DNA of 63,237 bases, the filler included, from Globobulimina sp. (lineage: Eukaryota): NCBI GenBank assembly GCA_003354225.1. It is 25 parts of 25 records of this genome, joined end to end, with 100 filler letters (N's around TTAATTAATTAA, not from the genome) between each part and the next. Parts side by side here need not be neighbours in the genome. Positions count along the whole stretch, not along the records: positions 5,072 to 7,506 come from PIVH01006698.1; 24 more parts are not named here. One strand, 5' to 3'. Both the position numbers and the translations under genes were made by a program. The notes beneath the pieces are model-generated. The model saw only the letters and a program-made list of their open reading frames with translations, did no database searches and had not been told where the DNA came from. This document shows, in pieces, positions 2,862-62,836 of this stretch (within the stretch, counting starts at the first letter, position 1; each line of letters starts with the position of its first letter).

Positions 2862-4269
2862 ACCAATTCGACATCTTCGATAAATGAATTAATCCGACCA
2901 ATTAAATGCAAAATACCATCTTTGCCGAATCTAAAACAATATATAAAAACGTTAATTGACTGTAACTTCTTTGCAATTCGGGACTTGTCGGATTTCTTTC
3001 GTCAGATCGGTCTGTGTGAGGAGGACAGTAATTATATTTGTTACTCTCTTTTTGGTTTGGTTTGGAGAGATAGAAAACAACCTTACGGTGTAGCGTCTGC
3101 CCCAGCCAATAGCCAATATTTTGCGCAAATCTTAATATGGATATTGGAGAGGAAAAACACTTGTCCATATTGATGATTTTGTGTTGGGAGCACTGAAAGA
3201 AGCGGACTGTATTGAGATGGAGGCGAGATTTGACTCCTTGATGAAAGAGTTAAACGTCCAAGTTTCGTTAAAAGAGTCGGGGTTTATTCGGACCTGTCAG
3301 TCCGCTGTGATTTATGGGATAATGTTTGATTTGAAACATAAAATGGTGGGAATCCCCCCGGTGAAATATGCCAATTTCAAACAATTAATCCTATACACCC
3401 TAAAATATAGAGTCATCACTGGAGGTGCTCTTGAATCAATCTGTGGCACCATTATGCATTGGGCACAGTTAAAACAACCAACAAAAGCGTTATGTTGGAA
3501 TTTACTTCACTTTATTTATGACAATATCCGATCTGGAAAATATCCTAAAAATCACAATTTCATATTACCCCTTTCCATATTAAATGATCTGAAATATTGG
3601 TATTTCTATGCCGATCAGATTCTGAGAGTGCCAATGTCCGAGATATTAATGACCAAAAAAGTATCCATTTCAGCATCAACAGATGCCTCCTCCACCCATG
3701 GCGGCTATGTCATAGGTGGCTATTGGTCCAATTATCAATTTAATGAGAAGCATACTGCCGATTGGCATATTAACCAAAAAGAGGCTCATGTAATCCTGTC
3801 TGCGCTGTATACATTTCGTCATTATTTGACAGGAAAAACCATTCATTTGTTTGTTGACAATGAGTCCGTATATTATGCGATACGTAAAAAGTGGTCCTCG
3901 GCATATAATTTGATGCTATTCATAGATGAGTTATGTCATATGATGTTGGAATGTAAATTTTTGGTGTGGATCGATTGGATTTCATCCTCCACCAATGGTC
4001 TGTCAGACGCATTGTCCAGATGTAAATTGAATGATTTTTGGGCCATCGTAAATGATTATAATCTCAATATGGCGAATGGCAAAACAAAATCTGTCTATTT
4101 TGACCAATTCAAATTCCTAAATAAACAAATTAATAATAGTACAAATCCAATGGCTGACATCCAATATGACTTCAAAGAATATCAACAATTCATTACATTC
4201 TTGTGTCTTCCATTAAAGCAGCGAGCAAAACAAGGATACCCTAATTATGCGTCCAATTTCAAGATGTAA
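2862..4269 (+). pseudogene. Reverse transcriptase/RNase H of copy A, with a frame break at about 3135-3150
   Basis: The frame of ORF 2922 carries PYGVASAP. The frame of ORF 3181 extends upstream as YWRGKTLVHIDDFVLGA but meets a TAA at 3133-3135. Confidence 0.75.
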
Positions 4270-4971: not shown

Positions 4972-5190
4972 NNNNNNNNNNNNNNNNNNNNNNNNNNNNN
5001 NNNNNNNNNNNNNNNTTAATTAATTAANNNNNNNNNNNNNNNNNNNNNNNNNNNNNNNNNNNNNNNNNNNNAATGGCGAAATTCATGTGGAGAAAATTAG
5101 CACCGAGGTACAACAATCCGTTATAGAAAAGATATGTTGTATATAACTGAACAATGTACATAATCAGGAACAAAAATTCACTGTGACGGG

Positions 5191-5395
5191 AATAATAATT
5201 TATATGAGATAGTTTTCTCGGGACTTTTTACCGTTGGTTGATTGGTTGACATATGGCTTGGCTGCTTCGCATCCTAAGCAATATATCACAACAACAAACG
5301 AAAAAAAGACATTTCCGCCAACAAGTTGGCTTCCATTTCCCGAGAAAACTATCTCATATAAATTATTATGACTTTTTTATCTTGACGTCATGAGT
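5191..5395 (+). repeat. Left TIR containing an internal perfect 32-bp inverted repeat
   Basis: ATAATAATTTATATGAGATAGTTTTCTCGGGA at 5192-5223 and its reverse complement at 5338-5369; the TIR ends in TTGACGTCATGAGT. Confidence 0.95.
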
Positions 5396-5440
5396 AAATC
5401 CTAATCATAATTACTTTCAAGAAAAAACAGAAACACAATT

Positions 5441-5689
5441 ATGTCAATCATTACATTGATTTCAGAAACTCGGGCCTCACTCATTACACTGATTTTAGAT
5501 AATTATCGTGAAATCCTTGAAGTGATTTCAGAAACTCACATCAAAATCCTTAGAAGGATGGAAAGACTTCATTTAGCAATTAATGGTAGATTTCAGAACC
5601 ATACTGTCAGAATTATAGAAATTGAGAAGCAGTTAAAAGAACTTACGGCAGTTAAAAGCAGTAGTGGAAAAATTGATATAAATTTTTAA
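5441..5689 (+). CDS. Small helical/coiled-coil hypothetical protein (element unit 1)
   Basis: 82-aa ATG ORF preceded by a leader motif shared with unit 2. Confidence 0.6.
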   Translation: MSIITLISETRASLITLILDNYREILEVISETHIKILRRMERLHLAINGRFQNHTVRIIEIEKQLKELTAVKSSSGKIDINF

Positions 5690-5852
5690 TTATTCGTTTT
5701 CATTGTTATTTAAAATCAATTTTAATTTACGTTTTTCCGATATTGACGTCAAGACTTTGATGACTCATTGGAATTTCGGAAAAAGCACGAAAAAAAAAGA
5801 AAACAAAAAGGAAACTATTTATTATTGTCTGTTTTTAAATAATCAATCAATT

Positions 5853-6462
5853 TTAGTTTGGATTTTGCTCTTGAATGAATGATTCCAATCTTTGGATTTT
5901 CTTTTTTAAATAAACAACTTCATCTTGCAATAAGCCCACTTGCAACGCCAAATCTGGACAGCAAAAATTGTGTTTTTGGATTGGAGGTGGTAAGTTGGGT
6001 TTGTTTGGCATAATGGTGTACGGAAAAATTGAAATTTGCTGTTGGCTGTCACAATAATATGGGTTTGGCGATGGAAAAACAGCTGTGTCTTCCGGTGGTG
6101 AAGGTGTGTGACAATAAATGGATCGTTTTGAGGGTTGTTGCACTGTAAATTGTGGTGGCGATGGTCTTGGTTGTTGCTTTCTTTTTTTTTTGTTTGGTGG
6201 TGGCGGTGTCTTTTTTAACAATAAAATCTGAAATTTTAAAAACTCTCTTGATTACACCTTTAACTGACCGCATAATTTTTCCGTCTTGTAAAAAATTTAG
6301 CCAGAATTCACATTTGCAATCTTCTGGGCAAGGGCAAGGGCGAGTATGATATGTTTTCACATAACGTTCGCCGGATTGTAATTTTGTTAACATTCTTTCA
6401 TACGCATCGTCATCTACAAGAAAAAAAGGTTGTTCTTCAATTTTCTGTTTCCTTTTTGACAT
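5853..6462 (-). CDS. Hypothetical protein (element unit 2): Cys cluster, basic NLS-like and Pro-rich region, C-terminal leucine-zipper-like coil; two overlapping frames
   Basis: ATG at 6462 (MSKRKQK...CPCPEDCKC) follows the shared leader. Frame 5853-6221 (KKTPPPPNKKKRK...LQDEVVYLKKKIQRLESFI) overlaps it at an A-run, suggesting one gene with a frameshift. Confidence 0.5.
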
Positions 6463-6612
6463 TTTTTGTACTGTGTTTCTGTTTTTTCTTGAAAGTAATA
6501 GGAAGAGATGAAAGTGTTCCGAGTAATTATGATTAGGATTGACGTCAATATCGGAAATAATTTCGGAAAAAAACGGAAAAACGTAAATTAAGTTAAACAT
6601 TAAATAAATAAA

Positions 6613-6993
6613 TTAATTCCAATAAAGTTTAAAAAAAAACACTGGAGCATCGTGCTCCAAACTTTCATCATTCAATTTACAATCTCTTAAAGCCATTAAT
6701 TTAATAATGGCAAAGTCATCATTCTTTACCCTTTTCCGTCCAATGAATTTGCCTTGACAATCAATTGGAAATTCGTTTGATAGGCCCAATGAAATATCTT
6801 TAGGCGTTCCGTTTTCGCGGACAATATCATTAATGTTTCCTCGGATTTGCTGCACAATTTGTGCTTTTTTTCTATAATGCAACAATTCATAAAATGCACG
6901 AATATGCTCTGAAACATAGACTTTGCTCGGCATTGTTGGCTTGGTTTCTTCTTTACAATCTGAGGCTTCTTCTTCTTGTTTTTCTACGACCAC
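6613..6993 (-). CDS. Hypothetical protein (element unit 3); first ATG at 6933
   Basis: Open frame of 126 codons between TGACGTCA sites at 7050 and 6540. Confidence 0.5.
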   Translation of the reverse strand: MVVEKQEEEASDCKEETKPTMPSKVYVSEHIRAFYELLHYRKKAQIVQQIRGNINDIVRENGTPKDISLGLSNEFPIDCQGKFIGRKRVKNDDFAIIKLMALRDCKLNDESLEHDAPVFFFKLYWN

Positions 6994-7044
6994 AGCAAAA
7001 CCCGATCACGAATGATATTACAACTAAAATGTTATTGATGATTA

Positions 7045-7247
7045 ACTCATGACGTCAAGATAAAAAGTCATAATAATTTATATGAGATAGTTTTCTCGGG
7101 AAATGGAAGCCAACTTGTTGGCGGAAATGTCTTTTTTTCGTTTGTTGTTGGGATATATTGCTTAGGATGCGAAGCAGCCAAGCCATATGTCAACCAATCA
7201 ACCAACGGTAAAAAGTCCCGAGAAAACTATCTCATATAAATTATATT
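7045..7247 (-). repeat. Right TIR containing an internal inverted repeat
   Basis: Reverse complement of the left TIR with a few indels/substitutions; internal arms at 7070-7101 and 7216-7247. Confidence 0.95.
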
Positions 7248-7606
7248 GACGGGGTGGATCAACTTTTATTGGATTGGCAAACATGTCTTAATCCGAGAAG
7301 ATCGTGAACGATATCGTCGTTATGGTCCCAGAACAAATATTTGGCAAATCGTGGACGACGAGGATAAATTTGAAGATTATGCACAAGAATCCAAAGAAGA
7401 GAAGGAAGAGAAGGAAGAGAAGAAAACATTAATCGACAAAAAGACAACCAAAATCCGTAAACCATTTGGTGGATCTCTTGCGATGGACAATTTAAATTTA
7501 ACCTTCNNNNNNNNNNNNNNNNNNNNNNNNNNNNNNNNNNNNNNNNNNNNTTAATTAATTAANNNNNNNNNNNNNNNNNNNNNNNNNNNNNNNNNNNNNN
7601 NNNNNN

Positions 7607-60997: not shown

Positions 60998-62836
60998 TTA
61001 CGTTTAAAAAACGAGTGGCTCAGCAAATTACAGCGCTTACCATCCAAAACAGTCCTTCAACGAAAAATCTATAATTTAAATGCTTGGAAAAAAGAGGCCA
61101 AAACACATCGGTCCAAATTGGCGATCGAGAAGCTGATGGTAGAATTAGAGCTCGGCTTTGATTTAGGTTTTGACATAAAAAATCGGCCAGAGCCCCGACA
61201 TAAAGTCCGTAACCCACCAGCTGATTGTAACACTAGTATCGGTCTTTCGAAAACCGTTTTTAAGTGGTATACAAAAAACCAGTTACTTGGCCCGTTTACC
61301 ACGGAAGAAGCCAGAAAAATTGGTGTCACGGTAAGCCCCATTCACGGTGTACCAAAACCAGACGGATCAACACGACCCGTCATTAACCACTCTTACCCGA
61401 AAAGACGTTTTGAAACATCTGTCAATGGACATCTTGACGAAGATCTATGCACCGTCCAATACATTAACTTGCAGGCAATCGTGGCAACCGTACAAAGAGA
61501 AGGCCCCGGGGCTTGGGTATGGACACGTGACTTGGAAGATGGTTACTTCAACTGTATCCCTAGACAAGAACAAATGAAATTTTTAGCCTTCCCATGGGCC
61601 GGAAAAATATGGATACCAACAGTCATGACGTTCGGTTTAAGCTCTGCTCCAAAAATTTTTACTGACTTTATGACGGTACCCTTAAAAGCTATCCGACAAT
61701 TGGATCCAGCAATCTCATATCGAGAGTGCAAAGACGATAAGGTTTTTCCGATATTGATGAAAAACGAGCCGGATAAAATTGTCAGTTTTTGCCACAATAT
61801 TTACCCCTTAATTCGAAGCTACGTCGACGATATCATAGGGGTCCATAAAAATCACGAGGCAGCCTTGCGACAATTTGAGAACGCCGGGAGAAAATTAGAG
61901 GAGCTTAACCTAAGACCAAAAATTAAAAAAGATCAACACCCCTCGCAAGCAGCGATAGTTTTAGGTGCGTTGATTGATACCGTTAGGCAGCGAGTATTTT
62001 TACCAGACGAAAAAAGAAAACGGTACATCACAGATATTGAGGAAGTCCTTCAACTTCACAGGGTACATAAATCCCGGATTCATACAATCATTGGCAGAAC
62101 ACGACATAGTGCCCAGTTTTCACGACCACTTGCCGTGTTGGCTCGTAACTTAGACGCTTTTGTGTATGCAACCCCACCAACACAGCAATATGTCGATATG
62201 AACAACGACCTGCGCGATGATTTACGTTTCATCATCTGGGGAATTAATTTCGCAGCCGATACCGGCTCATCCTTTGATTATGTTGTAAAACCAGCGAATT
62301 CTGCTGACATCATCGGATATACAGATGCAGCCAAGGTTTATGGAGGTGTTGGTGGCTATTTACATGAACAAAAAGGAAGTTGGTTTCAGTGTCATTGGAA
62401 TAATATAGAAATGTCAGATCCCACTAAACGGGATATACAGTGGAGAGAGTTGGTCGCTGTCTATATTCTGTTAAAAATTAACAAAGAGCGACTACGCAAT
62501 AAAGCAATTACTGTTTATTGTGACAATGAACCCGTGTGTTGGATGATTAGTAAATTTCGGGCGGTTTTAACTAGACCCGACTTGCAGTGTGTCCTGCGAA
62601 AAATTGGTCAACTATTGATTGAGAACGAAATTCATTTATGGATGGAACATATCGCAGGAGAGAAAAATATCACTGCGGATAGATTATCTCGGTTTTATTA
62701 TAACCCTCTGAGTGAGTGTGCTGTGCCACTTAAAAACAGAGCTACCAGATGTCAGAAGGAAGTACAAGAGATCACTACATTATGTGAAAAATTCGAGATT
62801 GACCGACAGTATTTGATAAAAGACAAACAAGACTGA
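60998..62836 (+). CDS. Reverse transcriptase/RNase H of copy B (frame open from 60998, no ATG at its 5' end)
   Basis: GPF, SPI.GVPKPDG..R...NHS.P...SVN, DLEDGY, FGLSSAP.IF, YVDD, YTDA, ELVA, CDN, N..ADRLSR. Confidence 0.92.
   Translation, partial: LRLKNEWLSKLQRLPSKTVLQRKIYNLNAWKKEAKTHRSKLAIEKLMVELELGFDLGFDIKNRPEPRHKVRNPPADCNTSIGLSKTVFKWYTKNQLLGPFTTEEARKIGVTVSPIHGVPKPDGSTRPVINHSYPKRRFETSVNGHLDEDLCTVQYINLQAIVATVQREGPGAWVWTRDLEDGYFNCIPRQEQMKFLAFPWAGKIWIPTVMTFGLSSAPKIFTDFMTVPLKAIRQLDPAISYRECKDDKVFPILMKNEPDKIVSFCHNIYPLIRSYVDDIIGVHKNHEAALRQFENAGRKLEELNLRPKIKKDQHPSQAAIVLGALIDTVRQRVFLPDEKRKRYITDIEEVLQLHRVHKSRIHTIIGRTRHSAQFSRPLAVLARNLDAFVYATPPTQQYVDMNNDLRDDLRFIIWGINFAADTGSSFDYVVKPANSADIIGYTDAAKVYGGVGGYLHEQKGSWFQCHWNNIEMSDPTKRDIQWRELVAVYILLKINKERLRNKAITVYCDNEPVCWMISKFRAVLTRPDLQCVLRKIGQLLIENEIHLWMEHIAGEKNITADRLSRFYYNPLSECAVPLKNRATRCQKEVQEITTLCEKFEIDRQYLIKDKQD

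Follow-up and report, generated by a model that had tools for sequence, protein, structure and literature searches.

A structurally unusual transposon-like element in a Globobulimina sp. contig, with an inverted copy of the tip inside each terminal inverted repeat

One contig of a Globobulimina sp. assembly carries an element that is a single, probably non-autonomous copy of a structurally unusual transposon, and each of its two long terminal inverted repeats (TIRs) contains, inward of the tip, a second and inverted copy of that same tip sequence (Table 1). Because a 7-bp target-site duplication (TSD) flanks the element, with host DNA on both sides, the element is an integrated cut-and-paste insertion and not a hairpin-ended replicon. 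A first-pass annotation of this sequence had proposed that the element was either a composite transposon, built of two inverted MITE-like modules that had captured cargo, or a molecule whose fold-back ends served self-primed replication; the sequence evidence leans away from both proposals. The explanation favoured here, to which about even confidence is attached, is that of a long TIR carrying a second, inverted copy of a transposase-binding tip at each end of a non-autonomous cut-and-paste element that would move as one piece.

Table 1. Positions of the element, its terminal parts and its interior features, counted along the analysed stretch of DNA
Feature	Position	Strand	Description
Whole element	5191-7246		2,056 bp, between the two TSD copies
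Left TSD	5184-5190		7 bp, TGACGGG; direct reading of the sequence
Right TSD	7247-7253		7 bp, TGACGGG; direct reading of the sequence
Left TIR	5195-5400	+	206 nt; hairpin module plus 31 bp with a TGACGTCA motif; self-BLAST
Right TIR	7040-7244	-	Contains TGACGTCA motif 4 and the right module; self-BLAST
Outer-left arm	5192-5223	+	32 bp
Left spacer	5224-5337	+	114 bp; imperfect palindrome, with a hairpin of about 85 nt and a small 5-bp hairpin
Inner-left arm	5338-5369	-	32 bp; full-length inverted copy of the tip
Right hairpin module	7070-7246	-	Inner arm 7070-7101, spacer 7102-7215, outer arm 7216-7246
TGACGTCA motif 1	5383-5390		Inside left TIR, 51 nt upstream of the ORF1 ATG
Leader unit	5394-5437	+	Upstream of ORF1; inverted copy at 6472-6543, upstream of ORF2
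ORF1	5441-5689	+	82 aa, inward-reading; three 33-nt tandem repeats; orphan
Unit 3' of ORF1	5706-5752	+	Inverted copy at 6539-6607, 3' of ORF3
TGACGTCA motif 2	5744-5751		In the unit 3' of ORF1
ORF2	5853-6462	-	Orphan; exon 1 6462-6256, exon 2 6227-5853; 193 aa if spliced
Putative ORF2 intron	6255-6228	-	28 nt, GT..AG; removal joins two open frames
Inverted cassettes	6472-6607	-	Inverted copies of the leader unit and the 3' unit, directly upstream of ORF2
TGACGTCA motif 3	6540-6547		In the inverted cassettes directly upstream of ORF2
ORF3	6613-6933	-	106 aa, inward-reading from the right TIR; orphan
TGACGTCA motif 4	7050-7057		Inside right TIR

Assembly setting, element bounds and insertion site

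The window, by which is meant the whole 63,237-bp stretch of DNA that was analysed, consists of 25 contigs of 2,431-2,436 bp each, placed in size order and joined by linkers of the form N44-TTAATTAATTAA-N44 (for example at 4972-5071 and 7507-7606). Several long inverted repeats and one repeat family returned by the repeat finder span N44-TTAATTAATTAA-N44 and were discarded as artefacts of the linkers. Because other contigs encode plainly eukaryotic proteins, including SNAPc subunit 3, a Patched-type sterol-sensing domain, a choline-transporter-like protein, MutS and reverse transcriptases, the window is considered to represent a fragmented assembly of an AT-rich eukaryote. Pieces of retroelements lie on neighbouring contigs (3136-4266 and 60998-62833), with a reverse transcriptase-associated RNase H domain and a sub-threshold match to RVT_1. 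The G+C content of the 25 contigs ranges from 30% to 47%, and given this spread more than one organism may be present in the window. The contig with the element occupies positions 5072-7506 (2,435 bp, 33.8% G+C), and all evidence on the element comes from this one short contig. Sequencing run X1 contains 0.93 of the contig's sampled words, and runs X2 and X3, from the same sample, contain next to none.

The bases adjoining the two TGACGGG copies differ on both sides. The earlier estimate of a 6-bp TSD is therefore replaced by one of 7 bp, the length of the direct repeat that lies outside the ends; a 3-bp TSD of GGG, with TGAC assigned to the element, was also considered and is less parsimonious. 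The insertion probably interrupts a coding region, as is suggested by an empty site created in silico by removal of the element and one TSD copy, where one frame is open across the junction for 99 codons; it is bounded by a stop that lies 13 codons before the insertion point and by the end of the contig. An in-frame stop at about position 5146 splits this flanking frame from a further open stretch upstream, and no GT..AG intron of a length divisible by three that would remove the stop was seen in the flanking frame. A word-indexed search for homologues of the flanking ORF yielded 142 candidates with common words, none of which scored at E<=0.01.

Terminal inverted repeats and their hairpin modules

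In a self-BLAST alignment the left and right TIRs are 98.5% identical over 206 nt, with two mismatches and one 1-nt indel, and because of these differences the two ends cannot be regarded as an assembly duplicate of one another. The tips themselves are slightly unequal, in that the left end is 2 bases longer than the right before the common sequence starts. The TIR had initially been equated with a hairpin unit of about 178 bp. A hairpin unit of this kind does lie within the TIR, but the TIR runs 31 bp further inward to its full length of 206 nt, so that what is repeated at the two ends exceeds the hairpin in size. Self-comparison detected no tandem or direct repeats within 5195-5400.

The description of the left module as a pair of perfect 32-bp arms around a spacer holds, the arms being 100% complementary with 114 nt between them. 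Its proposed mirror image at 7070-7247 agrees with the reverse complement of the left module at 175 of 178 positions and so stands in substance, except that base 7247 belongs to the TSD and not to the module. On the right, the arms pair perfectly for no more than 29 nt (7073-7101 / 7216-7244), and at 94% over 35 nt. Four copies of the terminal sequence, as first reported, are indeed present: the window contains four exact matches to a 26-nt core of the arm, as against a mean of 0 matches in 100 dinucleotide shuffles, none of which reached four. No further copy of this core was found elsewhere in the window, even when three mismatches were allowed.

Modelled as single-stranded DNA, the module folds with a free energy of -50 kcal/mol (z = -12.2), and none of 200 shuffled sequences was as stable. 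The 114-nt spacer folds as well (z = -4.35, again with 0/200 shuffles as stable), and does so alike on both strands, with z-scores of -4.4 and -4.8. On the plus strand the base pairs of the spacer are exclusively Watson-Crick, and on the minus strand 38 Watson-Crick pairs are accompanied by two G-T pairs, which points to a symmetry at the level of DNA and not to an RNA with G-U pairs. Nearly the whole 178-bp unit is self-complementary, with the spacer palindrome nested inside the arm pair.

The element thus has two terminal modules, each with inverted repeats of its own (arms of 32 nt on the left and 29-35 nt on the right), as is expected of a composite-type transposon. Evidence that the modules inserted independently, in the form of unrelated inner flanks or of duplications belonging to each module, was not found: reading of the sequence revealed no direct repeats at the boundaries of either module, and 31 bp of homologous sequence adjoin the two modules on their inner sides. 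The lack of module TSDs and these homologous flanks speak against a composite formed by separate insertions of two MITEs.

The other 24 contigs (about 58 kb) contain no further copy of the element or of its module, and no solo module occurs in the window, all four arm matches belonging to the element. An exact 23-nt arm pattern retrieved no loci from collections of metagenome, viral and prokaryote-genome contigs, in which this organism is not represented. A gapped hairpin pattern (12 + 12 nt) likewise retrieved none from the viral and prokaryote-genome collections, which also do not include the organism, and two from the metagenome collection, L001 and L002. These two loci were rejected as relatives of the element, being palindromic arrays that are richer in GC and do not otherwise resemble the arm; the dense arrays of short palindromic GGCCAGAGATAG-type repeats at L001 200-460 and L002 2440-2692 are chance matches to the pattern. 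Since the organism is absent from the collections, the blank results say little about copy number. A search of the contig against Rfam gave no matches.

Open reading frames and repeated cassettes of the interior

Between the TIRs lie three candidate genes, ORF1 to ORF3, each of which is downstream of a TGACGTCA motif. The tandem repeats of ORF1, at 5446-5537, have a 33-nt period corresponding to 11 aa and are 77-85% identical to the reference copy. ORF2 may contain a 28-nt intron, which is proposed on the strength of its GT..AG borders and of the two open frames that its removal would join.

Pfam searches at E<=0.1 assigned no family to any of the five frames examined (ORF1, both frames of ORF2, ORF3 and the flank ORF), and the only match listed up to E=1 was that of ORF3 to Cnl2_NKP2 (E=0.13; 12.8 bits versus a cut-off of 27). 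Transposase, recombinase and Rep families were all missing from the Pfam results for the element's proteins, and because of this the element fits the description of a non-autonomous one. Searches of the ORFs against PHROGs produced nothing better than E = 0.004, the listed matches being weak and unrelated, and neither a Rep/NS1-type nicking endonuclease nor any other replication protein appeared among the Pfam and PHROG results. A word-indexed search returned no homologues of ORF3 or of ORF2 exon 1, a full HMMER scan of 1.84 billion representatives returned 0 matches to ORF2 exon 2, and the ESM Atlas offered no usable match for ORF3 or ORF2. Single-sequence AlphaFold models were poor, with a mean pLDDT of 54 for ORF3 and 56 for ORF2 exon 1. 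A codon-usage score trained on the long ORFs of the window did not separate the three ORFs from other open frames; this score mostly reflects the absence of stops, and was not counted as evidence.

Inverted duplication of short cassettes is a recurrent feature of the element's interior. An inverted copy of the sequence that extends from TGACGTCA as far as the ORF1 ATG, with a perfect 28-mer in it, lies directly upstream of the ORF2 ATG, and the segments of the leader-unit repeat comprise 28 nt at 100% identity and 22 nt at 95%. The repeated stretches may represent duplicated promoter/leader and 3' cassettes, and it is these duplicated cassettes that would provide the best evidence for ORF1-3 as real genes. 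The TGACGTCA octamer itself is confined to the element, which holds four of its four occurrences in the window (0.83 would be expected in the window), two of them in the TIRs (5383 and 7050) and two in the internal inverted pair (5744 and 6540). The TGACGTCA sites may be an element-specific promoter motif, or may mark a recombination junction. The octamer is a CRE-like palindrome and is found at mosaic junctions between different flanking cassettes; an AP-1-like TGACTCA site follows motif 2, at about position 5760.

Comparison with known elements and competing explanations

Terminal inverted repeats, and a TSD directly outside the ends, place the element with class II TIR transposons, for which an encoded transposase or an autonomous partner would also be expected; none was found, either in the five reading frames or, in the case of the partner, within the window. 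In the favoured explanation, each 206-bp TIR would act as one functional unit, composed of the 32-bp tip, the 114-bp spacer, the inverted copy of the tip and then 31 bp, and the four 32-bp arms would be binding sites for a transposase supplied in trans, with the predicted outer and inner sites about 146 bp apart at each end. Cleavage would occur at the outer arm pair, the inner arm pair would assist in the assembly or regulation of the synaptic complex, and the element would move as one piece. The three small orphan genes, with their common promoter/leader cassettes, would be cargo or accessory genes and not a transposase. Two aspects of the sequence count against such a double-site arrangement. 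Internal binding sites are usually diverged or shortened, but the inner arm repeats the tip perfectly and over its full length, down to the outermost bases, and in this it resembles the terminus of a self-contained MITE-like module more than it does a typical internal site. Furthermore, the paired sites are inverted, and not direct as in elements with IR/DR ends, and they are seen in one copy of the element.

Inverted pairs of subterminal binding motifs are present in the ends of En/Spm and Ac, and Tc1/mariner elements of the IR/DR type generate a TA target-site duplication. The long TIRs of the element, with their predicted outer and inner sites, resemble those of Sleeping Beauty and other Tc1-like IR/DR elements, and in Sleeping Beauty both sites are needed for transposition (PMC4229213). 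The IR/DR sites are direct repeats of 15-20 bp in that account, whereas those of the element are inverted and 32 bp long, and neither repeats in direct orientation within the TIR nor a TA TSD is present here. The same text describes an engineered sandwich vector in which two complete units are placed head to head around a cargo and only the outermost ends are used (PMC4229213); this vector shares its head-to-head double-unit design with the element, but is man-made. Long, structurally complex TIRs on cut-and-paste elements are also known from foldback-type transposons, namely Galileo of the P superfamily (PMC4168063) and Tm1 of Meloidogyne (PMC3169594), both of which have many non-autonomous copies. 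Galileo further resembles the element in having a 7-bp TSD, but its target consensus is the palindromic GTANTAC (PMC4168063), as compared with TGACGGG here. Foldback TIRs consist largely of tandem direct subrepeats (PMC3169594), and no such subrepeats make up the TIR of the element, where one inverted pair encloses a unique spacer. Pfam revealed no THAP or P-type transposase in the ORFs, and the 7-bp TSD is compatible with P-like elements without defining them.

Drosophila FB pairs can mobilise the genes that lie between them. Among published architectures the closest is that of KolobokP of animals, in which, as described by Kojima and Bao (2022, PMC9587614), an internal region lies between two long terminal repeats; each repeat is itself bounded by TIRs and can excise as a solo repeat, a layout that the authors term composite-like and unlike any other DNA transposon. 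Two long terminal modules with short TIRs of their own, and a terminal sequence that occurs four times, are common to KolobokP and the element. As described there, however, the modules of KolobokP are direct and about 450 or 660 bp long, with TIRs of up to 18 bp and a TTAA TSD, whereas the element has inverted modules of 178 bp, with 32-bp arms, and a 7-bp TSD; KolobokP also encodes a transposase and a nuclease, whereas no transposase was found in the ORFs of the element. Bacterial composites of the IS-cargo-IS type are alike in that two small mobile units, inverted or direct, mobilise the interior, but in the same account (PMC9587614) IS units encode transposase and insert independently, whereas the modules here are non-coding and their inner flanks are homologous. 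A limited search of the literature, much of it in excerpt, turned up no naturally occurring element in eukaryotes that repeats its complete terminus, inverted, within the TIR and with a unique spacer between the two copies. The layout is unusual but not unprecedented.

Several features of the modules would also be explained if the element were a natural sandwich or composite, in which a foldback MITE of 178 bp with 32-bp TIRs, free now or until recently, flanks the three-gene segment as a head-to-head pair, and the transposase acts on the two outermost arms, so that the whole would move as one element. This possibility, the main competitor of the favoured explanation, is a doubtful one, yet the anatomy of the module is MITE-like in its small size, its strong foldback and its perfect 32-bp arms that extend to the tip bases, and the four termini are identical; there is precedent, too, in the terminal repeats of KolobokP, which have TIRs of their own and also occur solo (PMC9587614), and in the engineered head-to-head pair of complete elements, which transposes well (PMC4229213). 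What weighs against it is that independent MITE insertions should differ in their inner flanks, and that module-level duplications are lacking; a weaker objection comes from the count of 0 solo modules in the other 24 contigs and of 0 true matches in collections from which this organism is absent. If one end arose as an inverted duplicate of the other, or if the two ends were later homogenised, the common inner flank could be explained and the composite model rescued, and the terminal sequences may be foldback modules complete in themselves, or descendants of such modules. The fuller scenario of a natural sandwich transposon, in which two head-to-head foldback MITEs would have captured a three-gene unit complete with its own TGACGTCA-type promoter cassettes and would move it in one piece, is considered unlikely.

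The strength of the module's fold, together with the nested imperfect palindrome that the spacer forms on both strands and the self-complementarity of nearly the whole unit, raises the question of whether the hairpin structure is itself functional, either in self-primed or hairpin-transfer replication similar to that of parvoviral ITRs, or as a source of stem small RNAs that would regulate the element and would arise from read-through transcripts of the 32-bp stem. A functional hairpin of either kind has only a slight chance of being correct. A 7-bp TSD in host DNA indicates integration at a staggered cut and does not fit a linear molecule with hairpin ends, the ORFs gave no match to a Rep/HUH protein, polymerase or other replication protein in Pfam or PHROGs, Rfam is silent on the contig, and the spacers at the two ends are plain mirror images, as in any TIR. 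The palindromes, moreover, are not at physical ends, as they would be in a hairpin-ended linear replicon, since host-like sequence continues on both sides, and hairpin-ended replication is unlikely. A final explanation, that the structure is an inverted chimera or a mis-join at a repeat introduced by amplification or assembly, is the least credible of all and would be surprising if true. The short length of the contig, the high fragmentation of the assembly and the presence of the contig in one run only would be in keeping with such an artefact, but the substitutions, the indel and the unequal tips that distinguish the two ends, the clean flanking 7-bp TSD and the frame that is open for 99 codons across the in-silico empty site are not, and an independent re-assembly of the run contains 93% of the contig's sampled words, though it derives from the same sample.

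The double-site TIR is retained as the preferred explanation on no more than the even terms given above, and what the element contributes depends on which explanation is correct. If the arms are ordinary paired binding sites, the element is a modest addition to the known range of TIR architectures, from a poorly studied protist genome. Composite transposition has the larger consequences. IS-style composite transposition is textbook knowledge in bacteria, and only a few families of eukaryotic DNA transposons are well described as picking up and moving host genes. For composite transposition in eukaryotes, a limited literature search found one documented lineage, KolobokP (PMC9587614). If the element is a composite, it would be a second and structurally different case, with inverted modules, a 7-bp TSD and gene cargo, and the route would be more general; as a sandwich it would correspond to KolobokP, but with inverted modules, and would be a eukaryotic analogue of the IS composites of bacteria, and its four identical termini would also permit excision of a module only and inside-out rearrangements. 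A composite of this kind would, finally, be a small and simple model in which to ask whether a terminus that is repeated internally promotes transposition or impedes it.
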